NCBI GenBank assembly: GCA_000004985.1
Contig: GG738857.1
Origin: Naegleria gruberi
Lineage: Eukaryota
Direction: 5' to 3' (one strand)
DNA: 64,000 nt
Under the pieces are notes generated by a model that did not search any database, was not told the DNA's origin, and saw only the letters and a list, made by a program, of their open reading frames with translations. The translations under genes were made by a program, and so were the position numbers. Below, piece by piece: positions 7,561-58,975 of the stretch (position 1 is the first letter of the stretch; every line of letters starts with the position of its first letter).

Positions 7561-7730
7561 AGTGAGCTTTTTCAATTTCCTTTTGAACAATAATTCAATA
7601 GGACATTAATACAGTTGCTTAATAGTTTAAGCAAAGAGAGTATAATTTCCTGCGAAATAAGATTTATTGAACATTGTAGTTTTAATACTTTAATACGGAG
7701 AAAATCCCCTTAATTGTTTTTCAAAAAAAA

Positions 7731-34274: not shown

Positions 34275-35500
34275 TTGATAAAAATTCTACCATGGCATTC
34301 CTGTGTCAAAAGTGAATTGACGAGTCAACAAAAAATGCGTAAATCAACATCTGAAAAAACTCTTCCAGAAACAATCAACATAAAAAACCCATCCGAAGAT
34401 GAAAAATCCACTCTCCAACAACAAGATTGGTTTTGTGAATTAGTTTCAACCTACACAGAGCACAAGATAAACGCACTTGAGAAGGAAAATCAAAACCTAA
34501 TCCAAAAGTTGTTGGCTCTAACAGTTGATCAACGCTATATTAAATTTCTTGAATCTATTCCTTCATTGATGCAAAAACAACAAGAGCACAACAAACAAGG
34601 AAACTCTGACAATGAGTACAAAAAGTTAAACGAGAAGCTTGATGAAGTAATTGATGATTATGAGGACGTCAAGAGGAAATTAAAAAAAGCAGAAGAGAAT
34701 GCAAAAAAACCAAAGATGCTTTTGTTGAACAGCACTATTATAATGAAGAGAATATTAAAGAAATCACCAGGAAAGAAGAGAAGGTACGTGAAGAATTGGC
34801 TACCTTGAATGGAAAGTACCTTTATGAAAAGGAATCGTTCTTGAAACAAGTGTCCGAGTTAACAAAAGAAAGAGATCAACTAAATGATCAAATTTCAATT
34901 TACAAAACTCGAAATGATCCTGCCTTGCTGATGAATGACTTTTCTGATAACACAGTCAAAAAGATACATGATGAATATGTCACTTTGAAATCACACGATT
35001 TGAATTCTTTTGTGGGAAGAGTAGTTGAAGAACATTCATTAAGTGAAGATCAGGAATTTGATTTTGATTTAAAAATTGTTGCATTTGCATTCAAAACAGT
35101 CCGTAAACTCATTGAAGAAACCTATTCTGAAATGAATTTCGAACTAATTGGCAAGAAACTTACAAATGAAGAATCAGAAAGAAACCGCCTTATTGAAACC
35201 CTCGTCCAGACAATTGCAAAAATGGAAGAAATTGGAAAGAACAAGAAATTACAACAAGCTGCCAGAGAATTTATAACCAAACTCGTGAAATTCTATTGTA
35301 ACATGTTTCTCATTGATAAGAAGCTTGAATTGGTTTGGGCTTCAACTGGATCTCTCTACAATCCTGAATGGTACGATTCAAGAAATGCAACCAGTAACAT
35401 TGTAGTCACTAATGTTTTCAAACCTGCTCTCATGGACACATTCACCAAAACAGTCTACGAAAAAGGAATTGTTGAAACTACCCAAAAAAGGAAAAAATAA
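34275..35500 (+). CDS. Coiled-coil protein, member A of a lineage-specific family with conserved C-terminal domain; contains an apparent 1-nt frameshift
   Basis: ORFs 34275-34808 and 34796-35500. The good protein sequence switches frame inside an A7 run at ~34703-34709 (…KAEENAKK | DAFVEQHYYNEENIKEITRKEEKVREELATL…). C-terminal domain RNDPALLMNDFSDNTVKKIHDEY...LVWASTGSLYNPEWYDSRNAT...KPALMDTF is shared with the genes at 38801-40422 and 40567-41778. Confidence 0.55.
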
Positions 35501-35522
35501 CAATTATTACCTATATCAATAT

Positions 35523-38500
35523 TTATATTAAAACTCTCTTGTATGTAATTAAATATTCAGGATAGCATTGATTCCTATCATAGATAATATATTCATTGTA
35601 GGTGTGTTGTGATACCGACTTGGATCTTCCAATAACACTGTCATAAACTCTTCCATTTGAGTTTTCAATGACAGGTGGTCTTCTTTCATTTCTCATCTTT
35701 TCCCTTGTTTTGAAAACCATCTGACCTAACAGAACTCTACTGAGAAATATAAAACACTCACCATCCTTATTCGAAACACAATATTGATCACTCTTACTAC
35801 AGCAATCAGCAAAGTATATTCCAGCTCCAAACAAACCACTCAAAGCACTCAATCTTTCATCAAAGCCGTGTTCTGAAATGATTGACTTGACTACTTCTGT
35901 TGTTCCATGCCATAAATAAACTTCATTCACATTGGAATCTAATTCACACATTTCGTCAACAAAATCATTTCTAATTGGTATATCCATTACCTTCTTTTTA
36001 TCCTTATAGGAAATTAGGTGTTTCTTCTTTGATAGATACATTTCATAAAGTGATAAATTCTCAATTCTTTCCACTTTTAGAACTTGTAACTTGTTATATG
36101 GAAATGAATCTTTTTCATGGTTTCGTTTCTTTCCTAATGTAATTGTTACACATGTCTTATCCAATAAATCTTGAATATCCTCTTTTAATTCAGCGGTAAC
36201 ATCTATAATTGACATGTTATTTTGATTTGATTTCCAATAGGAAGGCTTTTGTTTCGTTTCCTTTCTTCTTGTCCCACGAAAGAATTCATGTCTTAATAAC
36301 TCAGATGCAGATAAAGTACAAATTTCTTCACGAATATTAATTGAGTCCATTAGCGTTTTCAAAAGAGATGAATATTCATCGAGTCGTTCCATTGACATGA
36401 TGTCAATTACCATTTTCACGAAACAAAACATTTCTTTCTGGAATGGTAATTTGTTTCCCTTTTCCTCTATTTTCACAACATTATCAAATCCATCCAATAT
36501 TAATTTAACTTGTTCATCTTCAATAATTTTCACATACACATTCGCAGCTCTAATATTTCCATGAACAAATGAATAGGTATGAAAATGATGAATGGCTGAA
36601 AGAATCTGAAACCAAATATCTTCCCATCCTGATCTAATGGATGAAAAATCTTTCAATGTTCCAATTGAGTAATATGGCATAACAATACAAAGTTTATCTT
36701 GACAAAGATAAAATCCAATTAATTCTGCAATATTTGAATGTTTGATTTTCTCTAGAATTTCAACTTGTTCAATTACCATTTCAATTTTATCCAATGAATA
36801 TTGTTTAACACGATAGAAAATATTCGAATTCTTATCAACTGCCTCAATAAGCATATAATTCAGAAATGCAGTTTCACTAATTGTAGTCAATTCCAAAGTG
36901 CTTACATCTTGAATTCCTATAATTTCTGATAGTAAATCATAGAATCCTGATCGATAGAGTGTAATTGATTTGTTTCGAATATCATTTCTGTTAATTTGAA
37001 GAGTTTCGAGTTCAGTTTCTTGTTCCATAATTTTTAGACAGGGCGCAGTTGATGTTGAGTTGTTTGTTTCCCACAATTTTTTCTCAATTTCAATTGATCT
37101 TTTGCGTGCTTCAATGTTCTCACTCATTAATTTGTAATTAATTCCATATTTAGAAATATCAAATTTAGAAATTATTGTTAAAGTTAATTGCATATTTTTA
37201 AATTCATTACAGATGGTAGTAATATTATTGATAAAATCAAGGCAATTATTTTTCATATCATCAATAAAGTAGCAATATCCTTTCAATTTCTTTTTCAATA
37301 AATGATACAATTCCAAATTTGGATTTTCTTTCAATAAGGAAAATAATTTTGAAATGGAATCTCCAATATCATTTGTATCATTGCTTATTTCTGAAAATTC
37401 AAGTGTTGAAATATTACTTGAAAAATTTGAAAGAAAATTTGCAACTCCACTCAATTGCTTATTACATGTATTAATCCATTTCTCCAAATTAGTCGAATAT
37501 TCTTCAAATGTTAATTCCAATTCTTCATAATTCGATATTTCATTACATGGAATTTCTTCTCCACCATTCAAAAATTCATTAATTTCTTTAGAAATTTCAC
37601 TCAAACTCTTTACAAATTCAATAAGAAAATTTCCATAATCACTTTTCTTAATTTGATTATTCATTGATTCATGGATTTGAAATTTGCTTCGAAATTCAAT
37701 TAAATCTTGAGGATTTTGTGATGAATAAATCGATTTTGAATTAATTTGGATAGGGCTGAGAAGATTCTTAATATCTGTAAACTTTTTCATGTCATATTCG
37801 TTAATTATGATATTTCTAATAAGTCTATCAGTGGTAAATCTTATAGTTTCCAATTGATTTTTCCTATTTTTGTATTCGAAACCTAATTGGGAAAGCTCTG
37901 TAAATATTGATGCAAAATGAATGAATTTAATTTCTATTGGAGATGTGCTAGTAGATGCTTGACTCACTTCTACATTAATTTCTTTTGTTTCCACATTAGT
38001 CTTATTTCTTTTTTCAGATTTCATTTCCTTTTGAATCGTTTTTATGGATTTCCCGCCACATTTCAATGCTATTGATATTTTGATATTAGGATGTTCTAAT
38101 AATAATTTTCACAATTTCAATTTTATCTCTTTCGCAAGCAACTTGCAAAGGTGTTTTAACCTTCCAAAATTGGTAAAATAAAAACTTGCAAATTAATACT
38201 TACCATCTTTAATCTTAAAACTCAATTAATTAAATATCAAACTTACATTCTGAATAATTCAATAAATGTATACTCATCATTAACAAGTTACTTACACCCT
38301 TATTAACATCCAATTCATTTGATTCCAATAATAATTTCACAATTTCAAGATGACCATCATAACATGCAATAAACAAACAAGTTTGTTCTGATTCTACACC
38401 ACAAAATGTCTTGAATAACAAGCTAATAAGTATTCATTTTGCTTCAAATCATACTTACTTCATTGACATTGACAAGTGACAGTAAATATTTGACAATCTC

Positions 38501-38782
38501 AACATTTCCACTTCTACAAGCATGATACAATGGAACCTAAACACATTTAACAATATATGATGATATAAAACCTACTCCGATTCTTGGATTTACCTTCTTT
38601 TCTTCTAACAAGTATTTTGTAATTCTTGTTGAATTATTAGAAATTGATTCTTCTAATAGAGTTTTGTTCGAAACAAGAGTTTTTGAAAAATCGGACAAGG
38701 ATTCAGCTAATGAAATGAATTGCTCTAAATTATCACTTGAAATTGACGAGATTACTTTCTTCTCAAGTTTCTTTTTCAACAT
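35523..38782 (-). CDS. Ankyrin-repeat / protein-kinase-like (probably pseudokinase) / PARP catalytic domain protein, multi-exon
   Basis: Large exon 35523-38066. Kinase-like region has HGNIRAANV in place of HRDLKxxN and GFD in place of DFG. C-terminal PARP fold: VYLWHGTTEVVKSIISEHGFDERLS...GAGIYFADCCSKSDQYC...YNEYIIYDRNQCYPEYLITYK (H-G-T, Y, E of the ART triad). Upstream small minus-strand exons encode ankyrin repeats (VPLYHACRSGNVEIVKYLLS; LFIACYDGHLEIVKLLLESNELDVNK; GKTPLQVACERDKIEIVKII) linked by gtaagt/ag introns. Assigning the ANK exons to this gene is an inference. Confidence 0.6.
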
Positions 38783-38800
38783 TTTTTTTAAACTAAACTT

Positions 38801-40422
38801 TTAATTCTTTTTTGACACTCTGACAATTACTTTTGCCTTCTCATAAATACTTCTCGATTGCAACTGCATTAGGGATGGAAAGACTGTGCACTGAATCTTT
38901 GGAATGGTTGTGTTATTTCTTGCATCTTGTTCGTATGGATTAAAATTGTCCTTTGCTTTATACCAAACGAATTCCAACTTTTTTGAATTGGTAAACATTT
39001 TCATGTAGAGTTCAATTGCCTTATCAAGTAATTCTGAGGTTAGATTACTAACTTCCCGATCTCTACAAATATGCTCAGGATTCTCAACTTTGAATTTGTT
39101 GAAAACGTGTTCAATGGAGGTGAAAATCTCATTGTGGCAGCTTTTGAGTAGTTTTTTCTTATCTGAATCTTCCAATGGCTTGCATCCATAACCTAATTTC
39201 TTGTCTTTCAATCTGTGTTGTAATGATTTGCCCTTATTGTCGTCTTGAGCTGGTGAAAAGAGGTATTTGGCTAATTCCATTTCAATTTCACATTCAAAAT
39301 CTTGTGCTACATCATCTCCATTAAGATTTTCACTCATTTCTTCACAAAGAGAACCCAATGAATTCTTAATTTCAAAATAAGCATCCTTAATTGACTTGGT
39401 GGTATTGTCGGAGAAATTGTTCATCTCAAGAGCTGGATCATGTTCTGCTTTGACAATTCTAAAATTATCTTCAAGTTGAGCAATCTTTGATTCTAAACCA
39501 TTTTTCAGTTCGATTAGTGCTTCTTTTTCTTTCTCAAATCTTGATTGGTTTTCACTTGCTTCGGTTCTCATTCTGTTTTTATCCTTTTCCAGATTTGAGA
39601 TTTTACTTTCAAGAGATTGAAGGTTTGCCTGGAGTTCAAGTGTGTCATTTTTAAGATCCTTATTATCACTTCTCAAATCTTCAAGCTTTTTGGTTGTATT
39701 TTTGTGGCTGTCTTGTTCAGTCTTCAACTTTTGTTTAGTTTCATCATGTTCACTTCTCAATTTGTTGAAATTCTTTTCTAAAGTGTCCTTTTCCTTCTTG
39801 AGATCTGTAAATTCTTTTTTCTTTGTATTCAATTCAGTAATCTTTTGATCTTTTTCACTAACCAATTGCTTTTCACGGTTCTGCAAATCATCATTTTCTT
39901 TCTTTAATTTCTTCTCATTATCTCTTGCTTCATTGCTTTCTTTGGTTAATTTTTTAATTCTTTCATCTTGATTTTGGGATTTTTCTAATGAGATTGATTT
40001 AAGGAATTCAACAAGTTTCTTATCAACTTGTACAGTGTCTAATATGTCTCTTAATCTGTCAACTTCCTTGGTATGCTTTTCTGACTCTTCCTGGATGTGG
40101 TTAACTTTGTTTTTTTCCTTATCAAGATTACTTTGGAGAATAGAAACTTGTTTTCTTTGACTCTCTAAATCTTGTTTAACCTTGTCAAGTTCGTGTTGGA
40201 GGATTTGTGCTACATTCTTTTCCTGGTCCCAATTACTTTGCAGATTGGAGGTTGTTAGCTTTTCTTTATTAAAGGCCTCTTCAATTGACTTGAGTTGAGT
40301 TTGAAGTTGTGAAATTCTTTTTTGATAATGGGAGGGATCTACTTCTTGTGTTGGGGGTGGAACATCACTTGTTGGTTGTTGTTGGGGTTTGATGGTGGAT
40401 GATGGTTTATTTGAATTGGATT
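38801..40422 (-). CDS. Coiled-coil protein, member B of the lineage-specific family
   Basis: Long heptad-rich region (LQSNLDKEKNKVNHIQEESEKHTKEVDRLR...). C-terminal domain AEHDPALEMNNFSDNTTKSIKDAYFEIK...FVWYKAKDNFNPYEQDARNNTTIPKIQCTVFPSLMQ homologous to members A and C. Likely ATG at 40422 (rc) preceded by an A-run. The ORF-track start at 40528 is probably upstream read-through. Confidence 0.6.
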
Positions 40423-40566
40423 CGTTTGTCATTTTTTTTAAAGACGTACGAAAATTTGACGAGTTGTAATGTAATTTTGAAACCTGCATTCCGTGTTCCG
40501 TTCTGTGAATTGACGAGTCATCATTCACTTGTCAAATGTTTAACTATCAAACAAATAATCAAAAAA

Positions 40567-41778
40567 ATGGGATTCTTTGGGTTTTTCAGTGATGACAATA
40601 AAGAAGAAATAAAGAAGGAGTTGAAGGCGGCAAAGGAACAAATTGAATACCAAAAGAAAGAGGTAGAAAGCCAGCGAAACAAAATTATAACATTAGAAAC
40701 AAATAACACCAATTTGCAAACTAGAAACACAACTTTACTCCAAGAATTTAAAATTTTAAACCCGAAACTTGAAAAATTAACACTTGAAAAACAAAATTGC
40801 GAATATATTTCCTCTCAATATCAAGCAAAAGCACAAGAATTGAACAAGAAATTACAAGAACTCGACAAGCAGTACAATTCCACTGTTCAAAATCTCAACA
40901 CTGAATTACAATCTTGTAAATTTCAATTCAATCAAGCAATCACTGAGTGGAAGCAAGAGAAGAACAAATTTGAATTAGAATTGAAAAGTGTAAAACAATC
41001 AAGAGATCAACAAATTTCTTATTCCACTCAATTACATTCAGCATTGACTGAAGAAAGAGAGAATTTCATAAACTTGTCCCAAACCAAAGAACAAGAAATT
41101 GAAAAGTTGAAAGCTGACATTATTTTAATCAAAGCTCAAAATGATCCAGCACTTGTTGTCAATGATTTCTCAGATGAAAGTCCTAAACAAATTAGAGATT
41201 TGTATCTTCAATCAAAATCAAGTATTGACACTTTGACAACAACCTTGGAAGACAATTTGACAGAAGATGAACAAGAACAATTGGAAATTATTATAGCCAA
41301 GACACTCTTTGAGAAATTAGAAGAGACTGTTATGAAATTTGTGTGTGAAACAAAACAAGTTGACAGCAGTGATAGAAAGCTCATTGGTGAATTATTGAAA
41401 TCAGATATTGAAATGAGAAAGCTTGTTATTTATCATACTTCAGTTGGATTAATGAATCAAATTAAGGAACAATTTGCCAGTTTTAGTAATTTTATTGAAA
41501 ATTGTAAAGATGAAGAAAGAATTCAAATTCAAAATGAAATTGACACAATGTCAACAAGTTCAATTTCAATGCTAGCAATGATCTTGAGAAATGAGCAAAA
41601 TATTGGTTTCGTTTGGTATAAACCAAAATCAGATTTCAATACTTTAGAACAAAGATCAAGAAATGCTGATAAGAAAATTGTAATTGATACTTGCATTTAT
41701 CCTTGTTTAATGTTGAAGGGATCAAGAAGTGTTTTTGAACAAGCAGTTGTTACAACAAAATTAACAAAACACAAATAA
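40567..41778 (+). CDS. Coiled-coil protein, member C of the lineage-specific family
   Basis: ATG at 40567 (aaaaaaaATG). Coiled coil, then AQNDPALVVNDFSDESPKQIRDLYLQSK...FVWYKPKSDFNTLEQRSRNADKKIVIDTCIYPCLMLKGSRSVFEQA. Divergently oriented to member B with ~145 bp between start codons. Confidence 0.65.
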   Translation: MGFFGFFSDDNKEEIKKELKAAKEQIEYQKKEVESQRNKIITLETNNTNLQTRNTTLLQEFKILNPKLEKLTLEKQNCEYISSQYQAKAQELNKKLQELDKQYNSTVQNLNTELQSCKFQFNQAITEWKQEKNKFELELKSVKQSRDQQISYSTQLHSALTEERENFINLSQTKEQEIEKLKADIILIKAQNDPALVVNDFSDESPKQIRDLYLQSKSSIDTLTTTLEDNLTEDEQEQLEIIIAKTLFEKLEETVMKFVCETKQVDSSDRKLIGELLKSDIEMRKLVIYHTSVGLMNQIKEQFASFSNFIENCKDEERIQIQNEIDTMSTSSISMLAMILRNEQNIGFVWYKPKSDFNTLEQRSRNADKKIVIDTCIYPCLMLKGSRSVFEQAVVTTKLTKHK

Positions 41779-41994: not shown

Positions 41995-43871
41995 ATGAGC
42001 ACCAGCACCCTCATCAAACCACAAGCAGGTAAAAACTTTGTCGTTTGCATTGACTTTGGATCTTCAGGTTCTGGCAGTTCAATTCTCTTCGTAAAGGATG
42101 AAGATAAAATTTTCACTCTCAAAACTTATCCAGACTCCCCTAACGTAGTTTACAATAAGAATATGTCATGTATTTTATATGAAGATGGTAAGAGACATAG
42201 TATTGGTTATACTGCTAGAAAGACAATGTTCTTTGAAAATGATGACGAAGATTCAGATGAAGATTCCGGTGAAGATTCGGATAGAGATTCAGATAGTGAA
42301 AGTGAAGAATCTCATGGATCAACTTCAACTGCTCCATCAAAAAAATCAGCAACTCCACTAAAAGATAGAAAATTTATCAGAGATTTAAAAATTCAATTCA
42401 TGGAAGCAACAAAAGATGAGAAGGAAATTTCAATTCCAGAAATAGTAATTTCCAATGATGGAACAACCAAATCTTTACTTGATGTGATGGCAGATTACTT
42501 ATCCATGTTATTCACAGATTTTATCATGAAGAGTTTAAAGAATAACGATAGCTCTGTTAAGAAAACTGATGTTCGTTGGTGCATTACAGTTCCCGCCAAC
42601 TATTCAGAACATCAAAAATCCCTAATGAGGAAAGTGGCATGTAAGGCAAAGATTATAGATAAGGAAAATTGTGATGAGAGTGATTTGATTATCATTTCTG
42701 AACCAGATGCTGCTACCATGTTCTGTATGAAACATAAGGCTAAATCTAAACCACTTACAAATGGTGAAACTTTTATGGTAGTTGATGCTGGTGGTGGTAC
42801 TGTAGATGGTAAGTTTGAGAAATTCTTGATTTAACATTTAAATTCTGTAACAGTCAGTTGTCATATGCTTGAAAATGGTAAATTGAAAGAGTTGGCAGTT
42901 CAAAAGGCAGAGCTATGTGGTTCTACATTTATTGATAGAGAATTTATTAAGATTTTAGAAGAAAATTGTGATAATTTCAAAGAATTTACAGAGAAAAATC
43001 CAGAAACTCTTGTCAAGATATTATCAATTTGGGAAGATGTTAAGAGAGGTACTTTGACAGTTGACAAGAAATTGACATTTGACACATCTCCAATGTTTAA
43101 AAAAGCAAAACCTAATAGTTCAATTTACAAATCAAGATCTACCAAGATTGCATTAACAGATGAACAAATGAAAAGAATATTTGACAGTCAAGTGTCAAAA
43201 GCACTCAAATTGATTGATGAAGTTTATAGAGATTATGAAGAAGATTATCCAAGTAGAAAGATGGATCACTTATTTATTGTTGGTGGTTTAGGAGATAATG
43301 GTTATTTCCAAAATCGTATTAAGGAAAGATTTGAAAAGAAATTTAAGGAAATTTTAATTCCACTTTTCTGTTCGACAGCTGTCATGGAAGGAGGTGCATT
43401 ACTTGCTAAGGATCCATCATTCGTTCAAGAAAATCAAAGTTATCATATGGTGTTGGTGTCATGGAAGAATTTGAAGAAGGGCATCATGCTGAAAGCAAGT
43501 ACAAGGTCATTAATGGTAAACATATGGCAGTTGACGTGTTGGATGTTTTTGTTGAACAACGTGAAGAAGTTGAAATTGATAGAGAAATTGTTAGAGAATA
43601 TGAATGTTTACCAGGTGCTACTCAAATTGATGTTGTTCTCTATTCATCTATTAAGAGAAGAGAAGCAATTCCTTATATTGATTCACCACTAGTTTCTAAA
43701 GAGGAAACAATTACAATTCCTTTTAGAGATTCATCAAAGGAGGCAGATAGAAGAGTTTTTATTAAATTCTTCTTTGGTAAATCAGAATTAATGATTACTG
43801 TTGAAAATGCACAAGGTGAAGTTAAGGAAATTAAGAGAGATTTTGAAGCAAACTCACTTGCCCTAAAATAA
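41995..43871 (+). CDS. HSPA12-like atypical Hsp70 (actin-like ATPase) protein 1; one intron plus an apparent frameshift (possible pseudogene)
   Basis: VVCIDFGSSGSGSS (phosphate-1), ISEPDAATMFC, FMVVDAGGGTVD (phosphate-2). Intron ~42810-42853 (gtaagt...aacag) gives GGGTVD-V-SCHMLENGKLKELAVQKAELCGSTFIDREF, collinear with paralogue 2. LFIVGGLGDNGYF (adenosine motif). Near 43411-43420 the reading frame must shift by 1 nt to continue into the conserved C-terminus (…LLAKDPS / IIRSRKSKLSYGVGVMEEFEEG…, matching paralogue 2 DSLISTRRMRMTYGVKAQKGSEE). Confidence 0.6.
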
Positions 43872-44116
43872 ATAGTTGAAATTCCATTCACAAAAATCTT
43901 AATATTTATTAGTATGAGCGAAATATAACCTCAATATCATTATTACAATCTGATCTTTTTCGTTTATCAAAACTGTAGAAAGCTTTTTTTGAACTGTAGT
44001 CACTCTCGAATCGTGATTCATTGTAAAACTTGTCAAACTTACCGATCAGAATTCCGTATGACGTACGATTTCTCATTTCTCATCAGTTTATTCTGTTCCA
44101 TTAACACACAAAAAAA

Positions 44117-46556
44117 ATGTCATCATCAACTGTTCCTGTTCGTTCAGGTTCCCTCAACAAGAAGAAAGTTGTCATTTCCATTGATTTTGGTACATCAAGA
44201 ACTGGTTTCTGTTATTCACTCACCAATGATGTGAAAAAGACTCGAGTTAAGAATACCTCATGGAAAGATGCACCAAGTGGAGTTTCATTCCCAAAGACTC
44301 TCACTCAATTACTTTATGAAAAGAGTGATACAAGAAAACCTGTTGCTTGGGGTTACACTTCACTTGACATGTTGTCAAGAGAATTTGAAGATGAGAGTGA
44401 ATCTGATGAAGATGAAGAAGGTGGTGAAGAGATTCCAGCACAAAATAGCAAGTATTATCATTTCAAGACATTCAAAATGGGATTATTCAATAATCCATCT
44501 GGTATGGTGAAGGATACAACTGGTGTTTTTGAAAAGAATGTTGGTGAATTGATAGTTGACTATTTGAAATTATTATTCCATGATCAGATTAAGCCAACTG
44601 TTGAGAAATCATTGGGATCTAAATTGAATCTTGATGAAGTTACTTGGTGTTTAACAGTTCCAGCCATTTGGAAAGATGAACAAAAATCAGATATGAGATT
44701 AGCTGCTTACACTGCTGGTTTAACAAAGACACCTGAAGCATCTTCTGATGATTTTAAGATTATTCTTGAACCAGAAGGAGCTGCTGCTTATTGTATGGAA
44801 TATCAAGCTTCTAAAGGTAAACCATTGAGAGAGGGCGAATCATTCCTTGTTTGTGATCTTGGTGGTGGTACAGTTGACTTGACATGTCATAAATTTGAAA
44901 AGGCAAGATTGAGAGAATTAGCTGAAGGATCTGGTGATGCATGTGGTTCTACATATTTAGATGATGCTTTTATTATTTATTTGGAAGAATGTTTTGGTAA
45001 GAAATTTGTTGAAACCTTAAGGAAAAAGTATGGCCAAACTTATTTGGACATTTTAAAGATTTGGGAAAGAACAAAAGTTACAACAACAGATTTAACAAAA
45101 GATATTAATGTTGATATGCCTGGTCAATTAAGTAGTTTTTTAGAAAGTGCCAATGTTAAAAGTGATAAATTCAGAGCTAAAAGAGGTCAACTCAAAATTA
45201 CAAGTGAAGCTTTACAAACAATTTATCAAGATTCATTAGAAAAAACAAGAAATCTTGTTGAAAAGCAATTAGAAACAATCCAATCAGAGACTGGTAAAAT
45301 GGTTGATTATATTTTCATAGTTGGTGGTTTTGGTGCTTCCAAAGTAGTTCAAAACTTTCTAATTGACAATTTCTCTTCACAAGTTAAGGGAATTGTAATT
45401 CCAAATGAACCTGCTGAAGCTGTTGTTGATGGTGCTGCATTATTAGGTATTGATGATTCATTAATTTCAACACGTAGAATGAGAATGACTTATGGAGTTA
45501 AAGCTCAAAAAGGAAGTGAAGAAATATTCGATACTTTTGTAATTGCTAATCAAGAACTTGAAGTTGATCAAGGAATTTCAAGAGAATACAAAGTTCAAAG
45601 AGCTAATCAACAAGCTATGAAAATAATCATCTACAGCACTAAATTGAAATCAATTACAAAAGTTGACGAAACTAAATGTCATAAGATTGGTGAAATTCAA
45701 GTACATATGACAGATATGACAGGTGGCATGGATAGAATAGTGAAAGTTACAATGTATTTTGGTAGATCAGAAACTAGAGTTACTGCCATTGAAAAGAATA
45801 CTGGAATTGAGTATAGTGCATTAATTAAGTATGATGGTGAATTATTTTCACATGGTGAAAGTATTGCTGACACTCCACCAGTTCAACCTCACCATTTGTA
45901 AGTATAGAATGTTATATTGAAGTTTACAATTTCTAACTGTTAAAAGAATTTTTGCAAATGATGTTTCAGGATCAATGTGGGCAAGAGATGCTTTACCAAC
46001 AATGAGTTTACTTAAAGTAAGTATTCTTCCATGATGTTTTTTACTAATATTCAATTAGACCTCTCATAATAACAGAGTAGGAGCACTTTATGAAGCATGT
46101 TATGCCTTTTTAGAAACAAGAAAAGAAACTTCAGATATTTCATCGTGTATTCTTCATAATCATGATTCAATCATTATTTATGATAAAAAACCTGCAACTC
46201 CATCACTTGTTTCTGATTACATGATGAAATATAATGCCGACGGTGGCAACAACTTTTTAAAAGTATTCGAAACTGTCGAACAAGTTCTCAAATCGAGTAA
46301 TAACGAGGAATTCAAACCAATAGTTTTCTTTATGACAGATGGTGCTTGGCACGACGACGGAGCACCTGCCTACTTGGAAGGCTTAATGTTAAGATATCCA
46401 GATTTAACAGTTCATGTCATTAATTTGGGTAGTTCAATTAATTTTGAATTGATGAATAGAATTGCAAAGATTGGTAGAGGAACCATTTCAACATCTGGAA
46501 TGAGCGCTGTAGAATTGAAGAGTACCTATCTCAGCTTGCTTCCTTACTTGGATTAA
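44117..46556 (+). CDS. HSPA12-like atypical Hsp70 ATPase protein 2 with C-terminal von Willebrand factor A (vWA) domain, 3 exons
   Basis: Exon 1 44117-~45896: VVISIDFGTSRTGFCYS, ILEPEGAAAYCMEY, FLVCDLGGGTVDLTCHKFE, IFIVGGFGASKVVQNF. Donor tt|gtaagtat. Exon 2 ~45953-46012 (acceptor ...ttaaaag) encodes L-IFANDVSGSMWARDALPTMSLLK (DxSGSM MIDAS motif). Donor gtaagt; acceptor ...acagag. Exon 3 ~46076-46556: VGALYEACYAFLETRKE...NADGGNNFLKVFE...IVFFMTDGAWHDD...VHVINLGSS (vWA fold). Splice phases are compatible across both introns. The ORF-track stop at 45901 is the TAA inside the gtaagt donor. Confidence 0.6.
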
Positions 46557-46659
46557 TAATATTTCCCATAAAACATTCCCATGGTGGATATCCTTGTATT
46601 GTACAATATTATGAAACTAATAGTATTAATGAATAATTTAATAAAAAGTATTGGTAGTA

Positions 46660-48539
46660 CTACCAATTTGGTTGTGGATTTTTAGTTCTAGATTGATATT
46701 TTCTATCAAACATTTGATATAAATAACCTTCACACATTCCTTGTACTTTGTTGAAATGACATCTAACAAATGGATCAATTTTAGATGCTAAAATAGTTCT
46801 CTTAACATTTGGTCCTAAAATTGGTAATAAGAATTTCTTAAACCACCAATTACCACCTTTAGCATCTAATTGTAAATCAACCATTGTTGCCATAATATAT
46901 GGTGGAATATAAATTCTATAAACACGTGTTTGGAACTCTTCAAATGTTTTGTAATCAATTGTAGAAACATCTCTTCTTAAAATTTCATCTAAAATTAATT
47001 GACATTCTGTCATACATGTAACACCTTGTCCATAGACAGGATTTAATGATCCAACTATTTGCAATTAGTTAATGAATTAATCAATTAGTCAATTAGTAAA
47101 TGAATCAATCTTAATAAATCTTAATAAAATTGCTTACCTGAATCACCAAGTGCAAGGAAATTTTCAAGAACATGTTGATTTCCATTTTCATCCTTATATT
47201 GTGTAATCTTTTCCCAATGATTTAAAACAGTTCCATCCTTCTTATAATTTGACCAATCAATAACTGGACCTTGTTCTAAATCACAATGTTCAAAGAATAA
47301 TTTAGTCTTTTCTGAAATATCAGGTGAAACCTTACTTAAATAATCAATACAATCTTCATGATTCTTAATTTTAACACATTCTGGATTTTTACTACCAGTT
47401 TCACCAATAATAAACATTCCCTTATCTTGTGAAACTCTATAGTAAATCATACCACTTTTAGTTGGAAAACCAACATTACCAATATATGCCCAAACAGGTG
47501 TTTTACCATCTTTTTTAAAGAATCCATCTTGCATATTTGGATCTTTCAATTTGTAAATTGCTGAAGTGTAGGTTGTTGTGAGAATAATCTTACTCTTTTC
47601 CATTTCAAATTTTCTATTAGAATCTTTGGAAAATTCTTCTTCAACCCAAATTGGTGTTTGAGTTGTTAAACCTGAACAATCAATTACTAAATCTCCATAA
47701 ACTTGTTCACCTTCTTGTAATTTAACACCTTTAACACGATGAATAATTTTAGAATCTTGTGTTTGAACCTTTTCAAATATTAAACCACTAACTGTTTGAT
47801 CATCTCTGAATTGAATTTTACCCAATGGTGATGAATTTTCATCAATAGTACTACTATTATTACTACTATTATTACTATTACTATTATTATTGGTGTTGAC
47901 ATTAGTTGAAGTAGATGATTTTCCAATTAATGATGAAGAATTCTTATTAATATTCATAATTAAATCTCTAATATAAGATTCAATTTGATATCTTGTCATT
48001 TGATAACCAGGTGGACAAATAGTTTGACCTTCAATTAAACCACATAATTTATCAGATTTACCATCAATGGCAGCATAATCTGTATTTTCAATTAAAATTT
48101 TAAAAGCTCCCATCTTTTCAATTTCATTAATAAAATCAATATTTAAATAACCACCAAATAATTTCTTGAAAATTGTAATACATCTCAATAAAAAAATGTG
48201 AGTTTGAGTTCCTTGTGGAGCAGTTGACTATTACAATAATATTTAATATTAAATATTAAATTACAATATTTAACATACCTTGTTAGTTTCATATCTCTTC
48301 TTTTCAAATAAAATAACATTTTCAAAATGGAAACAAGCATTGAGTGCAGTTGTAATACCACCAATACTACCACCAATAATAATACATGTACCTTTCTTTT
48401 TCTTATCTGAAACTTGTCCAAGTTTAGAATTTTCCAATTTGACTTGAGCATCAAAGAATGGTTTAATATTATTTAACCAATAATAATAGGCATAACATGG
48501 AAGTGCAACTAGTGCAGACAATGCAAGATATCCTAACAT
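46660..48539 (-). CDS. FAD-dependent monooxygenase-like protein (PHBH fold), multi-exon
   Basis: N-terminal exon 48270-48539 has TM segment plus GTCIIIGGSIGGITTALNACFHF (GxGxxG). Middle exon 47121-48188 has an N/S-rich insert and DLVIDCSGL. C-terminal exon 46660-47064 has IVGSLNPVYGQGVTCMTECQLILDEIL (degenerate GDAAH...GQG motif region). Confidence 0.55.
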
Positions 48540-49180
48540 TTTGGACTATAGTATAGTTTAGGTGTTGAATTAATAATTATAAATATATTTGTATATTGGA
48601 GTGGTGTTATATGATGAAGTGGAGAAGAGTAATATGAATCAACCATTCGTTATATGGTTTAATAGTAATAGTTGTTGTTGTGATAATGATGAGAGGAATG
48701 GAGCGGCTATTAACACTTACTTTTTTTTCTATTCGAAAGATTTTAATTGATGCGTGCTGGAATGCTGTCATTCGATTGATTTGGAAAGCTACTTTGAAAG
48801 ATGGTAGTCAAAATACGGTATGAAACCTTCAACAGTTGATTATCAGATCTGATTACGAATTTTTCAAAAGGCTTTATGAAATTACTGTGAAATAATTGAT
48901 GAAAATATTATTTCTCAGAACTGGTAATTATTTGGTACCGAGTATTACGACATCTACTGTTACTTTACAGTTTTCCGATTTCAACAGCATCATCAAATGA
49001 GAAAAGCCTTATTCCTTGTTACTCCTTCATCAAACACAGATTGTGCTCACTATTAAAAATCAAATGCATTTTTTTAATAATCTAGATTATTGATAAGAAT
49101 TTTAGCAAACCAAAATGCAATCGAATTAAAATCTGCTCAAACAACTAGTTCTTTCGAATACGTTATTCATGATTGAAAAT

Positions 49181-49339
49181 GGATGTGTAGCTCAGTTGGA
49201 AGAGCAAGGAAAACTAGTCCAAGCTGTGTATCAAGTGAAGTGGATGGGAGATGGATGGGAATAAAACTTGATTAAAAAACAGCTAGACTCTGGGACAGAT
49301 CCCAGGCCCCTGGTCGCACGATCGAAACGTGTCACATCC
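49181..49339 (+). ncRNA. tRNA-like Pol III element: tRNA 5' half and 3' half separated by ~85-nt insert (intron-containing tRNA, pseudogene or tRNA-derived element)
   Basis: 5' GGATGTG-TA-GCTC-AGTTGGAA-GAGC (acceptor + D-arm, A-box) and 3' GCACG-ATCGAAA-CGTGT-CACATCC (T-arm + acceptor complementary to GGATGTG; GATCGAAAC T-loop as in eukaryotic initiator tRNA-Met). I could not pair a canonical anticodon stem across a position-37/38 intron. Confidence 0.4.
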
Positions 49340-49413
49340 AATAATATTAATTTTTCATATAAATTGATTGGCAAACAAATATCAACTATGACTAAAATAG
49401 TTTATTTACAATT

Positions 49414-50790
49414 TTAGTAACTTTCTATTACACACGCTTTTAAAGATGAAATAATTATTTCAAATTGTTGTGAACAATTAATATTATGATTTCTTTCTTT
49501 GCAAAATTCAATTAATGGAATAAAATTAGCAAGAAAATGAGTTGTAAAAAGAGATCTCTCACCAATTTCAGTTTTAAATTCATTCTCCAAATTGCTAGAA
49601 TCACAGCAATCGTCACAAATATCAAATGAATCATAACCATCCACTGTTGATTGATAAAATCCTGAACATGTTTGATCACATATTTTACATGTCTTTGTTG
49701 ATTCAATTTTAAAAATATCAAAATTATTTCCATACTTTTGTTTCATGTTTGGAATCAAGTTACTTATTTCTGATGGTAAATGATTTAATAATTCAAAATA
49801 TTGTAAAAATTCAACAATACTTCTTCCTACACATGTCAATTTGTGATCATTTAGGTATGATTTGATTAACCATTTTAGTGATTCTTCCATATTTGGCAAT
49901 GTACCAACACCAACACAATACATGTAAGCTACTCCATATTGTGCAAAGCAATAGTTTTGTTTGGCTGATTTTAACAACCATTCAAGTCCAAGTTTTAAAT
50001 CTTTTTCATAATATTCACCAGAATAGTAATAAATACCAATCCAATATTGAGCTAAACAATTTCCATTTCCAGCAGATTTGAAATACCAATCTGTTGCTTT
50101 TTTGAACTCTTCATTAAGTCTATAATGTCTAGCGAGTTTATGTTGATATTTACTATTTCCTAATTCAGCTCCTTTTAAAAGCCATTTTTCTTTCATTTCT
50201 GATGAATTTTTGTTTAATTTTTTCATTTTCTTTATGGCAGGAAAATAATTTAATTCTGCTGATTTTTCCAAAAATGTAATATCCTTATTATATAAATAAA
50301 TTAAATAGTTAAAAATTGGATTATTGGTTTGTTTGGCACATTTTTTATAAACCTTGTTCAATTTAATTCTACTTTTAATATTTGGTAAATCAATTTCAAA
50401 TTTTTTTAATTGTTTAATAATTGAATTTGGAGAAATAATTAATTTTTCCAATACTTTTAAACTAAAATCACCACTTAAATATAATTTTTCCAATTTTGTA
50501 AATAATTTACAATTAAAAATAGTTTTTAACATTTCAGTATTTACATTATTAAAACTACATTTACAAATTTGTAATACTATTTGACTATTACAAAATTTTT
50601 CCATATCCGAAAGTGAAACAAAACGTGTAGAAACCATTTTCAATTTTAAATAGTAATAAATAGACATATCAGACCAATATTTACAAACAAGTCTATGAAC
50701 CAACCATTCATTTGGTAGATAACTTGAAATGTGTGCTAAAATCTCAGGTGGAATTTCATCATTGAAATTTCGTTTTGATAAATTAGACAT
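49414..50790 (-). CDS. F-box / Sel1-like repeat protein
   Basis: N-terminal F-box (IPPEILAHISSYLPNEWLVHRLVCKYWSD). Central Sel1/TPR-like repeats (AELGNSKYQHKLARHYRLNEEFKKATDWYFKSAGNGNCLAQYWIGIYYYSGEYYEKDLKLGLEWLLKSAKQNYCFAQYGVAYMY). Cys-rich C-terminus. Confidence 0.65.
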   Translation of the reverse strand: MSNLSKRNFNDEIPPEILAHISSYLPNEWLVHRLVCKYWSDMSIYYYLKLKMVSTRFVSLSDMEKFCNSQIVLQICKCSFNNVNTEMLKTIFNCKLFTKLEKLYLSGDFSLKVLEKLIISPNSIIKQLKKFEIDLPNIKSRIKLNKVYKKCAKQTNNPIFNYLIYLYNKDITFLEKSAELNYFPAIKKMKKLNKNSSEMKEKWLLKGAELGNSKYQHKLARHYRLNEEFKKATDWYFKSAGNGNCLAQYWIGIYYYSGEYYEKDLKLGLEWLLKSAKQNYCFAQYGVAYMYCVGVGTLPNMEESLKWLIKSYLNDHKLTCVGRSIVEFLQYFELLNHLPSEISNLIPNMKQKYGNNFDIFKIESTKTCKICDQTCSGFYQSTVDGYDSFDICDDCCDSSNLENEFKTEIGERSLFTTHFLANFIPLIEFCKERNHNINCSQQFEIIISSLKACVIESY

Positions 50791-51206
50791 TTTTTTTAAA
50801 GTTGATCAAAACTCCACAATTTCTAATTCTATTAATAAAAGTGCAAAATCACCATCACGTTTATCACGTTTTGTCAAGTTAGAAAGTTCCAACTCAATTT
50901 TATTTAAATAAAATTTCATTGTTTTTGAATATTACTTAATCATTGAGAGTTGATGAAACCAGGCTTCAATACATGTCTTAATGAGCCTTCCGAGTTCTCG
51001 CATTGGATTAAAAAAATTGTTTAATATTCTTTACAATCCATTCAACAATGAAGGCTTGATTGAAAGGCTTTCATGAATTAGAACTCATGAACTTGATATT
51101 AATATCATTAGAAAAAATATCTTTTCATCATCAACTACCACTCTCTTGTAGAAATATTCATCATCCGATCACATCAAAGTAGTACTGATAGAAACAATTT
51201 GCTATT

Positions 51207-52668
51207 TTGTTCATGGGTAATAAATCTTTTAAACAAGCGAACAACAAATCAATTTCATCAACAAGTTTATCATCACAACCCAATTCCAATTTTAATAACA
51301 ATAACAACAACAATAATAACATGTATCAAAGAAATACTCATCATCTTAGAACTGGTGGGAAGAGTGTAGTTTTTGGTTGCGGATATAATTCAGCATCATT
51401 ACTCGGAGTATCACACTCTGATGTTGAAGATAATGGAGTTCATGGATCAAATTCCTTTTCTCAAGATGTAACACAATTTGTTTTCTTATCAACATTACAA
51501 GAATTATTGAATAATGATTCTCCTGGACAACATGTTTGTCAAATTGTTGTTCAATTTTCCAAAACCTACTTTTTAACATCTCATGGTCATGTCTATACTT
51601 CATTTCCATTAGCAAGAGATGTTCAATTTGATAGTATTTTACCTGATCGTGTTGTGGAAATGAGATCAGGACAGAATAGAACATTATTTAGAACTGAATT
51701 TGGTCAAATTTATGTAAAAGCAGATGGTCCACTCTCTAAAATTACTGGAGTTACTAATACACAAGTAAATAATGTAAAATTATTTGGAGTTGGTGGTTTA
51801 CATTACTGGTTATTAGATGATGAAACTAATCGTTTATATGGTGAAGGAGAAATTAATGGAGCTAGTGTTGAAAAAGTTATAGAATTGAATGATTATTTAC
51901 AGAAAGATGAAAAAGTTAGAGATATTGTTACAGGTGGTAATTCGTATGTTTTTTTTATTTCATTTTATAGTAACAATTATATATAACATTGTTTAAATAA
52001 TGATGAATTGAAATTTGAAATTTGATAATAGATTTGTTTTAATAACAAATAAGAATAATATTTATGTATATGGAGAGAAGGAAGCTTTTGGATCAACAGT
52101 TGATGAACATTATTCTAAACCAACAAGATTAAGACAATTTGATGGAATGGTAAAATCAGTTGTTTGTGGATGGTATTTTACAATTATTTTAACATTTAAT
52201 GGACAATTATGGATGGCAGGTAGAAATACATATCAACAACTTTCATCTAAAAATCTATCATCTCATGATAATGTTGTTCAATGGTTTATAGATGATTCAT
52301 TAGTATTAAATCCAAATGAAGAAATTGATCAAATTGGATCTGGATCAGATCACGTTTTAATATCAACAACAATTGGAAGAATTTTCACAAGAGGAATGAA
52401 TACATATGGTCAACTTGGTAGAGATAATAGAACTCAATCTGGAGTATTTATGGAACCAAGTTTTAAAAATCAAAATTACAAGGAAATTATTTCTAAATTT
52501 GTTGGACCAAAATTTTCAATTTCATTTGCAGATAATAATTTTAATACTTTAAGTTCCTTTTTAATTATTCATTCAGTTAGAGAATCAAAGGAACTTATTC
52601 AAATGAGATCAAAACTTTTAAATTGTTCAAAACAATCTTTATTATCAGATTTAGTAATTTTACATTAA
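51207..52668 (+). CDS. RCC1-repeat (regulator of chromosome condensation-like) protein, 2 exons
   Basis: Exon 1 51207-51943 (donor gtatgt), exon 2 52024-52668 (acceptor gataatag). Repeated GxNxxGQLG-type blades (GRNTYQQLSS, GMNTYGQLGRDNR, YGEGEINGAS). Confidence 0.6.
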
Positions 52669-53247
52669 AACATTTTAATTTATTATTTAATATATTATTT
52701 TGATGATTGTAAAGTTAAAATGATGATCATGTGAGGATTAGTTATTATTGATTCAAGTCATTAGAGATAGATGAATAATAATTGATGAAATTTGAATGAA
52801 AATTTATTGTTTTTAGAATGTACTGTCAACATAATTTTTCCATAAAAGTAACAATTGTGAATCTTCGTAATGTTAAATATCAAAAATCAAAAACTGATTG
52901 ACGTTGTGTAAAACCAAACGTCATCAAAAATCGACTCGTCATTAAAAAAAATATCTGAACAGCTCTTAACAATAACAATCATCATCACCTGTTTCTGATA
53001 ATAAAATTATTATTATTTGATTATTATCGGTTTCTAATAACAATAGAGGTTAAGTGGCAGTAGAGTAATATAGAAGTTTTTTATAGAAGGAGTAGAAACA
53101 AATCATCATCATCATCATCTCTCTCCAGTTACTCACTCCATAACTATATTGTTATCATCATCAATATCATCAATTTATTATTATTATTAATAATATTAAA
53201 TAGTGTACATATTACAATAATAATAATAATAATATTAAAAAATTAGA

Positions 53248-54992
53248 ATGTCAGGTTTTTCATCACAATCTATTCAAGCATCACTTGTTAGACCATCCAA
53301 ATATAGACATTTAAATGGATTTGAAACTAAAAGTGAGAGATATGAAAATATTAATGTTGGTTATGGTCAAAAATTAAGTAATACATTAAAAACCAATGGT
53401 TCAATCTATGCATTACCATTTAATGTAACAGGTGGTACTTTATCATTTAAATATTTAAATGATTATGGTAGATGGGATGAAAAATTACAAAATTATGGAA
53501 TTATTAAGGCTCACAAGGGAAGATTATCAGATTTTGATATTTCCCCTTTTAGAAATAGAGATCATTTAGTAACTGTTTCTAATTCTGATAATATTATTAG
53601 ATATTGGAAATTACCTACAAATAATAATGATAATGATAATAATAGCAATGATATTTCTTCTTCTAATATTACTTCTACTAATACTTCCAATATAAATGGT
53701 AATAATACTATATATAGAACCTATGAAGAAATGGATTGTGATTTGGAATTAAATGATACAAATAATACAAAATCAACTATTAGTAGAATATCATTTAATC
53801 CACTTGTTGATAATTCACTTGTTAGTATTCAAGGAGATTTAATCCATTTTTGGGATGTTGAAAAAAAGAAAATTTTAAATTCAATTCAAAATTTACCAAA
53901 TCCATCAATTTCTAGTAAAACATTACCAACAGTTGAAAGTTTAGGATGGAATGAATATGGTAATTTATTTATATGTGGTACAAATGATCGTTCCATTAGA
54001 ATTTATGATATTAGATTATCTTCCAATTATAGTAATAATAATAATAATAATAATAATCAATCTAATAATCAACAAATATGTATAACTGAAGGACATTCAA
54101 GTATGAAACCATTTCAAACATTATATTGTGAAAATATGTATATATGTAGTGTTGGATTTTCTAAAAATGGAGGTAGAGAATTAGCCATGTATGATATTAG
54201 AAAAGATTTGAAATGTTTACAAAGAATTTCCATTGATAATGGTGGTTCAGTTTTAACACCATTTTATGATTCAGATATTAAATTACTATATTTAGTAGGT
54301 AGAGGAGATGGTAATATTAGATTTTATGAATTAGAAGGTGGTATTATGCATTATTTAAATGATTATAATTGTCAATCTACATCTGCATCTGTTGATTGGT
54401 TACCAAAATGGAAATTAAATGTTAATAATTTTGAATTGGCTAAATTTTTAAGATTAACAAATGAAAAAACAATTGAAACTCTTTCAATGAGAGTTTCTAG
54501 AAAATCAAATATTGAACAATATTTTCAAGAAGATATATTTCCAGATACTTGGAATGGTCAACCTATTTATAATAATACTAATCAATGGTTAAATACTATT
54601 ATTAATAATAATACTACTTCTATTAATAATAATACTATACAAAGTAATATTAATAATAGTAATGGTAATGGTAATGAAAATTTGAATGAAAATGAATTAT
54701 TACAAACTAGACCAACCATGTCATTAAAACCATCTGATAAAATATCTATCTATGATGTACCTATTAGTGAAGGTGGTAAAATTAGACCATCCACTACTAA
54801 TTTAAGTAAATTACATTCATCATCATCTTTAAATAGTATTGAAAATACTCCAACTACTACATTAGATACCCCAACTACTATTACAAATTATAATACAAAT
54901 GAACAAGTTGATGATGAATTTAAAGATTTAAATGAAAATCAACAATTTGATGACAATGAAGAAGAAGAAGAAGAATTAATTACCATTAATAC

Positions 54993-55023
<31 letters not shown>

Positions 55024-58000: not shown

Positions 58001-58908
58001 CTATAAATGGAAATAATCAAGAATTATTAGAAAATGTATTTACTAAGGAAATTGATCCAACATTTGAATATTTTATTTCTAGATTTAATAATTATTTAAA
58101 TACTTTTGAATTTAAAAATAATTATAATATTTCCTTTTATAATATTAATGATCATTCAGGTGAATTTACTTTAAATAGATTGGATCCATTTGGTGAAATT
58201 GATTTATCTTCTTCACAAGCCTTTATTTTAGATTGTCTTGATTTAGAAGGTAAAATCTATGTTTGGATTGGAATGTTATGTAATATTGAAACAAAGAAAT
58301 TTGCACTTTCAACTACCATTCAATATTACTATACATGGAAATCACAAACTTGTAATGATGAATTTTATAAGAAGAAACCTCAAAATGATGACATGGATGA
58401 TTTTGATCCAAGTAAATTTTTACAAAAATCAGATGAACAATCATTACTTGTCATTCAAGAAATGGAAGAACCACAAGAATTTACAAAACATTTCATTTCA
58501 TGGTCAATTAATTCAACTTCATTCAAAGTTAGATTTAAACAATTACAAGATCCAAATTTAATTTCAAAGGGTTTTGTTAAAACACCAAGAACTCCAAGAA
58601 GATCAAATATTAATGTTCAAATTTCTAAACATGAAAAGAATTTATTTGAACATTCTTCATCCATTTTTGAAATTGAACATTGTTCAAATGTTTTACAATT
58701 ATATAACAAATTATTTACTCACAAAACTTATAGTTATGCAATTTTAACAAGTGGTGCAAATATTCCAGAAGGTATTGATAAATCTAAATTAGAATCTTAT
58801 TTATCAAATGAAGAATTCCAAAAAGTATTTGGAATGGATAAAAAGAAATTTGCTACTTTACAAAATTGGAAACAAACCTCTTTGAAAAAGGAAAAGAATT
58901 TATTTTAA
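53248..58908 (+). CDS. Villidin-like giant actin-binding protein: coronin-type WD40 N-terminus, gelsolin repeats, C-terminal villin headpiece
   Basis: Single 1886-aa exon. N-terminus SKYRHLNGFETKSERYENINV...DFDISPFRNRDHLVTVSNSDNIIRYWKLP (coronin signature). Gelsolin-like repeats in the C-terminal half. Terminal LSNEEFQKVFGMDKKKFATLQNWKQTSLKKEKNLF (villin headpiece). Contains poly-N, His10 and a ~30-aa hydrophobic segment (GMGYYLGMAMFLIFKFTFISIPVWVY). Confidence 0.8.
54034..54057. repeat. (AAT)n microsatellite within coding sequence (poly-Asn)
   Basis: aataataataataataataataat in frame within the villidin-like gene. Similar AAT/CAA/CAT runs recur throughout the coding regions. Confidence 0.8.
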
Positions 58909-58975
58909 ATCACTCGCATATATTATTATTAAATTTGTATATTTTTTAAAATGATCATATTCTTTCAAAAGAAGA

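Follow-up and report, generated by a model that had tools for sequence, protein, structure and literature searches.

GrpE-like factors, which have been described only for bacterial DnaK and for organellar Hsp70s and thus in eukaryotes only from mitochondria and chloroplasts, begin with a disordered N-terminus, which is followed by a helical stalk through which the dimer pairs, a short domain of helices and a β-wing that prises the lobes of the Hsp70 nucleotide-binding domain apart (PMC12987570). For the HSPA12 proteins, a review from 2026 names no co-chaperone, and it considers their function as presently unknown and the mechanism of this group of Hsp70 derivatives as partly or wholly untested (PMC13580251). 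A further protein of relevance for this study is Mieap, described as a condensate-forming, cardiolipin-related factor that is present in metazoans and absent from bacteria and fungi, where two coiled coils are followed by a structured C-terminal half (PMC10845071). Here we have analyzed a 64,000-nucleotide stretch of the genome of Naegleria gruberi (contig GG738857.1 of assembly GCA_000004985.1), in the following referred to as the window, which between positions 34,275 and 41,778 contains three genes, A, B and C, encoding coiled-coil proteins with a common C-terminal domain, with two genes of the Hsp70 family lying beyond them. Our analysis, which is computational throughout, leads us to propose, with a probability of about 55%, that the three proteins serve as dimeric, GrpE-like co-chaperones for Hsp70s of the HSPA12 type, most likely by promoting nucleotide exchange.

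The paralogy of the three genes is evident from their C-terminal 213–231 residues, which align from end to end at 26–30% identity and which detect each other in BLASTP at E-values between 1e-11 and 1e-26. A preliminary description of the locus had proposed such a three-member family, with a heptad-rich N-terminal coiled coil and a C-terminal domain containing invariant blocks, and it had named a similarity limited to low-complexity coiled-coil composition as the case that would speak against it. The latter does not apply, since the C-terminal domains align with SEG filtering and composition correction switched on, whereas both described features are recovered: the blocks NDPAL-x-N(D/N)FSD, (F/L)VW, RN, P-x-LM and (Y/F)E(K/Q) are found in the alignment, and the N-terminal parts are coiled-coil-like, with 63–68% of their residues being E, K, Q, L, R, D or N and with runs of 70–278 residues that are free of proline and glycine. 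The matches of these N-termini to coiled-coil families such as ATG16, Nup54, SMC and Rad50 stay below threshold, a Pfam scan of A, B and C yielded coiled-coil noise with no curated family threshold being reached, and a search of the window by tblastn revealed no fourth copy.

The inability of the preliminary description to assign the proteins to a known family thus persists with respect to curated thresholds but not with respect to the predicted fold and the nearest Pfam family, which is MIEAP (PF16026, with gene A scoring below threshold). In AlphaFold2 (AF2) models obtained from shallow alignments, on which the fold assignment rests, the last ~90 residues are predicted to form a helix followed by a six-stranded β-wing with the fold of the Hsp70-binding wing of GrpE, and these models thus show the β-rich wing after a helix that is characteristic of GrpE. 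The C-terminal block of the family reads LEFVW-x6-FNPYE(H/Q)-...-V-x4-P-x-LM-x4-R-x-V-F-E-K-A-x-V, and the GrpE wing follows the pattern G-V-x-x-I...F-D-P-x-x-H-x-A...G-Y-x-L-x-G-R-x-L-R-P-A-x-V-x-V. In light of this likeness we have tested the similarity to GrpE by profile comparison. With hhalign, a family profile of 78 sequences aligns with a GrpE alignment over 48 columns of the wing (P=2.4e-4, probability 43.6%), in the register F-(D/N)-P-x-x-(H/Q)...P-(G/A)-Y...R...A/K-x-V-x-(V/T) that had been predicted beforehand. Reversal of the GrpE profile (P 0.19) or of the family profile (P 0.29) and column-shuffling of GrpE in 30 profiles (P of at least 0.068) served as controls, and a profile containing only bacterial members, as a check of the signal rather than as a null, gave P 3.2e-4. 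In searches of PDB sequences by HMMER, the wing part of a 46-sequence profile matches GrpE alone among natural proteins, although not at a significant level (Mycobacterium tuberculosis, E 0.42; GRPEL1, E 0.9), whereas its helix part matches designed helical proteins, which were also the only matches of an 8-sequence profile. The NCBIfam GrpE model is the single match of a member from Nostoc (E 0.018, 15 bits compared to a cut-off of 167), and the Pfam GrpE model reaches E=1.7 with a consensus of cyanobacterial members. As judged from such profiles, the family lies outside GrpE by every curated threshold, with a similarity to it that appears weak, validated by controls and consistent across methods.

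The relatives of the three genes reach far beyond N. gruberi. When 1.84 billion representative proteins were searched exhaustively by HMMER with a profile of the three genes, only eight proteins were retrieved, namely gene B, a truncated version of C of 148 residues, five proteins of Naegleria fowleri and a metagenomic protein, P0008 (E=1.5e-5); a public model of gene A was not among these hits, and the three-gene alignment, when used in a word-indexed search of proteins, recovered no match, not even gene B. In N. fowleri, three adjacent members of 326, 399 and 580 residues are located between two Hsp70-family genes and a gene encoding a kinase-PARP protein of 1353 residues, the latter two members being arranged head to head with a spacer of 81 bp. 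Since the cluster is kept in N. fowleri, it must be older than the split of the two species. The metagenomic protein P0008 is encoded on a contig of 2.7 kb, 7 bp downstream of an Hsp70 gene fragment that shares 36% identity over 76 residues with the C-terminal end of the Hsp70 encoded by gene 'b' of the window, and its 231 C-terminal residues used as query led to two further bacterial proteins. In the first (P0014), found in Thiomargarita genome bins, the gene starts 6 bp after a gene for a 576-residue Hsp70-family protein and is followed by a WD40 gene, whereas in the contig of the second (P0015) it overlaps the Hsp70 stop codon. The WD40 protein, of 293 residues (9171–10052 in L006), follows the Hsp70/partner pair in all four P0014 contigs (L006–L009), which represent a single Thiomargarita-type locus in near-identical form. 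When compared by hhalign, profiles built exclusively from Naegleria or from bacterial members match with a probability of 96.4% (E 1.4e-9) over the last 81 residues, and on these grounds the C-terminal helix and wing of both groups are considered homologous. The family is thus not a locally expanding, lineage-specific one, as had been suspected in the preliminary description, given the three adjacent members with their head-to-head pair in N. fowleri and the distant homologues that are widespread in bacteria beside HSPA12-like Hsp70 genes. The adjacency of the HSPA12-like pair, which the same description had mentioned as context, is real and provides the most important clue to function.

The extent of this linkage was defined in a survey of one genome per GTDB species, in which the Hsp70 rather than the family served as bait. 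The resulting 75 loci span Thiotrichales, Methylococcales, a metagenome-assembled genome of Flavobacteriaceae, many cyanobacteria, Chloroflexota, Planctomycetota, Myxococcota and many Actinomycetota. Six-frame open reading frames (ORFs) of these loci were searched with a hidden Markov model (HMM) of the 92-residue family domain, which upon iteration detected 14 loci in the first pass and 66 in the fourth, distributed over Cyanobacteria, Actinomycetota, Thiotrichales, Methylococcales, Planctomycetota, Chloroflexota and Myxococcota; two of the nine loci without a match contain too little downstream sequence. All 66 best matches reside on the strand of the Hsp70, and the domain ends 349–1846 bp (median 763 bp) past the end of the Hsp70 match, which places it in the ORF directly downstream. 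The linkage of the family to HSPA12-type Hsp70s is well supported.

The Hsp70s in question appear to deviate from the canonical chaperones, as the NCBIfam models of DnaK and HscA score far below their cut-offs. The protein encoded by gene 'b' shares 32% identity over 587 residues with the Hsp70 encoded ahead of the family gene in Thiomargarita. Direct reading of the neighboring Hsp70 genes reveals the motifs WC(L/I)TVPA, EPE(A/G)AA and D-x-GGGTVD, which by their likeness to motifs of human HSPA12A would tentatively assign these genes to the HSPA12 type. Since the Hsp70 ATPase motifs IDFGTS, DxGGGTVD, EPEAAA and VGGF are equally retained, a nucleotide cycle exists that a partner could regulate.

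The GrpE-like order of parts in combination with the genetic tie to an Hsp70 ATPase whose motifs are kept has led us to propose a GrpE-like co-chaperone. In such a mechanism, the long N-terminal coiled coil would pair two family proteins in the manner of the GrpE stalk, the C-terminal wing would attach to the nucleotide-binding domain of the HSPA12-type Hsp70 encoded next to it, and the complex would control the ADP/ATP cycle of the chaperone, with GrpE-like nucleotide exchange as its likeliest mode. Whereas we regard a functional linkage to the HSPA12-type Hsp70 as highly probable, the odds for exchange activity appear about even, and it is on the described grounds that we infer dimerization, physical binding and exchange.

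The comparison with GrpE itself (PF01025; Escherichia coli GrpE, human GRPEL1/2, yeast Mge1) illustrates both sides of this proposal. The family resembles GrpE in its succession of a stalk or coiled coil, a helical region and a C-terminal β-wing, in the motif F-(D/N)-P-(Y)-E-(H/Q), which is close to FDPYEHEA of GRPEL1 and which is followed by R...A-x-V-x-V, and in the genetic coupling to an Hsp70-family ATPase. It differs in that it matches no GrpE profile at a curated threshold, in its far longer coiled coil of about 190–330 residues and in its partner, which is an atypical HSPA12-type Hsp70 instead of DnaK or a mitochondrial Hsp70. With respect to the organellar location of eukaryotic GrpE-like factors, neither the N-terminus of B nor that of C looks like a presequence when read by eye. 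Other proteins with a comparable proposed role in the opening of the Hsp70 nucleotide-binding domain have folds that are unrelated to that of the family, as in the case of BAG (a helical bundle), HspBP1/Sil1 (armadillo repeats) and Hsp110 (Hsp70-like), and none of them was found among its fold or sequence matches. In fold and proposed role the family would thus appear GrpE-like, without being GrpE by sequence, and remotely related to MIEAP.

Several observations weigh against this interpretation. Even with the expanded profile the hhalign probability for the match to GrpE is still only 44%, and Naegleria-rich alignments of 8 or 10 sequences, compared to GrpE alignments of three sequences or to ones dominated by Enterobacter and Geobacillus, gave P 0.085–0.18 and were thus not significant. 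A, B and C themselves have no GrpE match in Pfam or NCBIfam, and there are more helices between coiled coil and wing than in the short helical domain of GrpE. On the side of the presumed partner, HSPA12 proteins lack the helical lid that is contacted by one face of the GrpE wing (PMC13580251). In N. fowleri, two additional paralogues (FDP41_013066 and FDP41_012123) are found elsewhere and do not adjoin Hsp70 genes. Finally, the expanded bacterial set originates from an HMM that was iterated in a small set of ORFs and might have drifted, although drift is unlikely since it would not place every match at the same position and since the consensus sequences of the groups are plainly alike.

Among the alternatives, the main one assumes that the family works with the HSPA12-like Hsp70 as an adaptor, sensor or effector arm in a module for stress or conflict that resembles immunity, in which the wing would merely dock on the ATPase, whereas the coiled coil would scaffold other components, for example the kinase-PARP protein of Naegleria or, in Thiomargarita, the WD40 protein. 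Such a role would be in line with the retention of the kinase-PARP neighbor in both Naegleria species, with the surroundings of the Thiomargarita pair, which besides the subsequent WD40 gene comprise toxin-antitoxin and RHS genes, and with the prevalence of filamentous or multicellular lineages among the carrier bacteria. It would also agree with the rapid divergence of the family, whose members share ~25–30% identity between the two Naegleria species with no clean one-to-one orthology, compared to 40% for the orthologues of Hsp70 'a' and 46% for the PARP domains. However, PADLOC models applied to the bacterial trio and the genes of the window returned coiled-coil or kinase noise only, and the GrpE-like helix and wing are the sole part that is conserved from bacteria to Naegleria, which points to contact with the Hsp70 as the core function. 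Although we thus consider it unlikely that the family acts primarily in this way, such a role would be compatible with exchange activity.

A second alternative concerns the relationship to Mieap/SPATA18 and posits that the proteins form condensates and bind cardiolipin-type lipids by their C-terminal domain independently of Hsp70. The Pfam MIEAP profile matches the Nostoc partner (L018:5742-6788) with 28.5 bits at a cut-off of 27 (E 1.8e-6, profile positions 47–195 of 195), gene A with 22.3 bits and thus below the cut-off (E=1.5e-4, residues 109–207, profile positions 100–195) and the cyanobacterial consensus at E 7.9e-5, with all matches extending to the last position of the profile and of the protein alike, and among curated families MIEAP is the best match. 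When compared by description, both proteins also share a layout in which a structured C-terminal domain of ~190 residues comes after N-terminal coiled coils. However, the MIEAP profile is matched neither by B and C nor by the Naegleria consensus, and Mieap is described without a connection to Hsp70, whereas the family is linked to it. The near-universal operon linkage to Hsp70 in bacteria would be left unexplained, as would the GrpE-like wing in case of a role as lipid surfactant, and the carrier bacteria are devoid of mitochondria. We thus regard an Hsp70-independent function of this kind as improbable, and the relationship to MIEAP itself does not conflict with a GrpE-like co-chaperone. No functional link of Mieap to either HSPA12 or GrpE was found in the open-access literature searched; in an anecdotal observation from a proteomics study in mussels, HSPA12A and SPATA18 were both raised after exposure to cadmium. 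Finally, the assumption of an ordinary, fast-evolving structural coiled-coil family of cytoskeletal or centrosomal function, whose position next to Hsp70 would be coincidental and whose likeness to GrpE would be an artefact of modelling a small β-meander, is disfavored and very improbable, since, despite the generic coiled coil that makes up most of each protein, the absence of GrpE similarity as seen by HMMER and the two N. fowleri paralogues that are unlinked to Hsp70, 66 of the 75 independent bacterial loci carry the domain immediately behind Hsp70 and in the same orientation, and its profile similarity to GrpE exceeds all controls.

The features of the locus are listed in Table 1. The ORFs, the kinase-PARP gene between A and B and the two Hsp70-family genes alongside are located where the preliminary description had placed them, and B and C are arranged head to head, although their ATGs are separated by a shorter distance than the ~145 bp previously estimated, gene A contains a frameshift behind its first ATG, and gene B most likely starts at 40432 instead of 40422, since the former ATG yields exactly the annotated protein.

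Table 1. Coordinates of genes, domains and upstream elements of the Naegleria gruberi locus, numbered along the window.
Feature	Position	Strand	Remarks
16-mer GTGAATTGACGAGTCA	34312–34327	+	7 nt upstream of gene A ATG; identical to copy at 40505–40520
Gene A, family member	34335–35500	+	1-nt frameshift inside; reconstructed protein of 388 aa
A7 homopolymer run	34703–34709	+	frame change of gene A within or next to run
Gene A, conserved C-terminal domain	34859–35497	+	213 aa; GrpE-like helix and β-wing are the last 92 aa (35222–35497)
Kinase and PARP catalytic-domain gene	35523–38066	-	between A and B; Pfam PARP 2.4e-25, Pkinase 2e-10
Gene B, family member	38801–40432	-	NAEGRDRAFT_79006 / XP_002679563.1, 543 aa
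Gene B, conserved C-terminal domain	38804–39496	-	231 aa; helical region then β-domain; GrpE-like helix and β-wing 38804–39079
Divergent spacer between ATGs of B and C	40433–40566		134 bp; two TTGACGAGT copies
Third TTGACGAGT copy	40456–40464	+	23 nt from gene B ATG, inverted relative to B
Second copy of 16-mer GTGAATTGACGAGTCA	40505–40520	+	46 nt upstream of gene C ATG
Gene C, family member	40567–41778	+	403 aa; public model NAEGRDRAFT_65183 is last 148 aa only
Gene C, conserved C-terminal domain	41086–41775	+	230 aa; GrpE-like helix and β-wing 41500–41775
HSPA12-like Hsp70 gene 'a', proposed client or partner	41995–43871	+	45-nt GT-AG intron 42809–42853; one base missing within 43408–43449
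HSPA12-like Hsp70 gene 'b', proposed partner	44117–45901	+	594 aa, intact; Pfam HSP70 E=1.1e-14

Gene A is distributed over two ORFs (34275–34808 and 34796–35500), with frame 0 encoding the N-terminal part up to ...AEENAKK and frame +2 continuing from ...TKDAFVEQ... to the stop at 35500. An intron cannot account for this break, since the shift comprises just one nucleotide; the sole good donor (GTACGT at 34786) resides inside coiled-coil-like coding sequence of the continuing frame. The break thus reflects either a pseudogene or an assembly error in the homopolymer. Similarly, addition of one base to Hsp70 'a' restores an ORF of 610 residues, which over 615 aligned positions shows the mentioned 40% identity to a 600-residue Hsp70-like protein of N. 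fowleri, and both genes, which are frameshifted in the assembly, could be paired pseudogenes or the result of sequence errors.

Within the coiled coil, a short conserved block that breaks the heptad pattern is found in A (34520–34560, VDQRYIKFLESIP) and B (~39990–40030, VDKKLVEFLKSIS). The 580-residue member of N. fowleri carries the same block (SNEIIELLKTA), and a segment of P0014 (residues ~75–95, FVRKYPYSIILLL) suggests that bacterial partners may share it, in which case the homology of the family may reach beyond the C-terminal domain. A start with Met-Gly is observed in gene C (MGFFGFF) and in two members of N. fowleri (MGLSFS, L001 8720–9919; MGNGVS, 7584–8564). The latter two fit the N-myristoylation pattern G-x-x-x-S, and some members may thus be tethered to membranes.

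The ORF of the kinase-PARP protein comprises 847 residues in N. gruberi, whereas its orthologue in N. fowleri contains a region resembling SNase at its N-terminus; the 730 bp upstream of the gene (38067–38800, with an ORF of 81 residues on the minus strand at 38537–38782) may contain additional exons, unless the N-terminal part has been lost. As conserved neighbor, this gene is a candidate member of the system, although unproven.

The genes A, B and C also share short upstream elements. The sequence TTGACGAGT occurs in three copies compared to 0.25 expected in the window, each of them preceding the start codon of one of the three genes by 7–46 nt, and its partly palindromic character (TGAC-GA-GTCA) makes it a candidate for a shared cis-regulatory site. 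The window contains one additional copy of the 8-mer TTGACGAG, its fourth in total, between the kinase-PARP gene and B (38743–38750). As such, the upstream 9-mer is not conserved in N. fowleri, where the equivalent places contain the related TGGCGTGAT (two copies) and TTGACGTGAT, and a degenerate 7-mer shows no overall enrichment. Both copies of GACGTACGA in the window are found in promoters of the cluster, upstream of B (40443–40451) and of Hsp70 'b' (44060–44068), as are all three copies of AATTCCGT, upstream of Hsp70 'a' (41881 and 41890) and 'b' (44050). These rare CG-containing words provide hints of co-regulation, with counts that carry no proper correction for multiple testing.

Elsewhere in the window, tandem paralogues of 602 and 623 residues (9708–11516 and 11742–13613) with long near-identical stretches look like a recent tandem duplication that is unrelated to the coiled-coil family. 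Past ~46 kb (about 46000–64000), the G+C content falls from about 33% to 22–29% and proteins rich in poly-Asn appear, among them one of 1886 residues (53248–58908) with WD-repeat-like and gelsolin/villin-like features, as read by eye, and fragments of a Pif1-like helicase (58976–61670). This region also contains a scaffold gap marked by a run of N near 62850–63020.

Collectively, A, B and C probably represent, in Naegleria, an old family of proteins that partner with Hsp70 and that had previously not been described as such. The open-access literature searched contains no description of this gene pair or of its locus tags, and the 'Hsp70-like' modules of CoCoNuT are unrelated to the family. For annotation, the gain comprises three 'hypothetical' genes in Naegleria, one of them unannotated and one truncated, and dozens of 'hypothetical proteins' in bacteria. 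Mieap/SPATA18 is a p53-inducible tumor-suppressive factor whose molecular mechanism is debated, and the remote link to MIEAP suggests a concrete and unexpected hypothesis for the human protein. Its C-terminal domain could be a diverged GrpE wing and an HSPA12-type Hsp70 with a Mieap-like partner could constitute an ancient two-component chaperone system of bacteria, Naegleria and animals, in which human Mieap would at least in part be a co-chaperone of HSPA12A/B and the Naegleria cluster with its kinase-PARP gene would be one elaboration; we put this forward as a tentative idea, which is more likely wrong than right. HSPA12 genes are massively expanded in bivalves, and the family link might bear on this expansion. 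If our proposal is correct, the cofactor that this orphan branch of Hsp70s has been lacking would be a dedicated GrpE-like partner, encoded beside HSPA12-type genes in organisms that range from bacteria to a free-living amoeboflagellate, and the biochemistry of the branch would become directly testable in simple bacterial two-gene operons.

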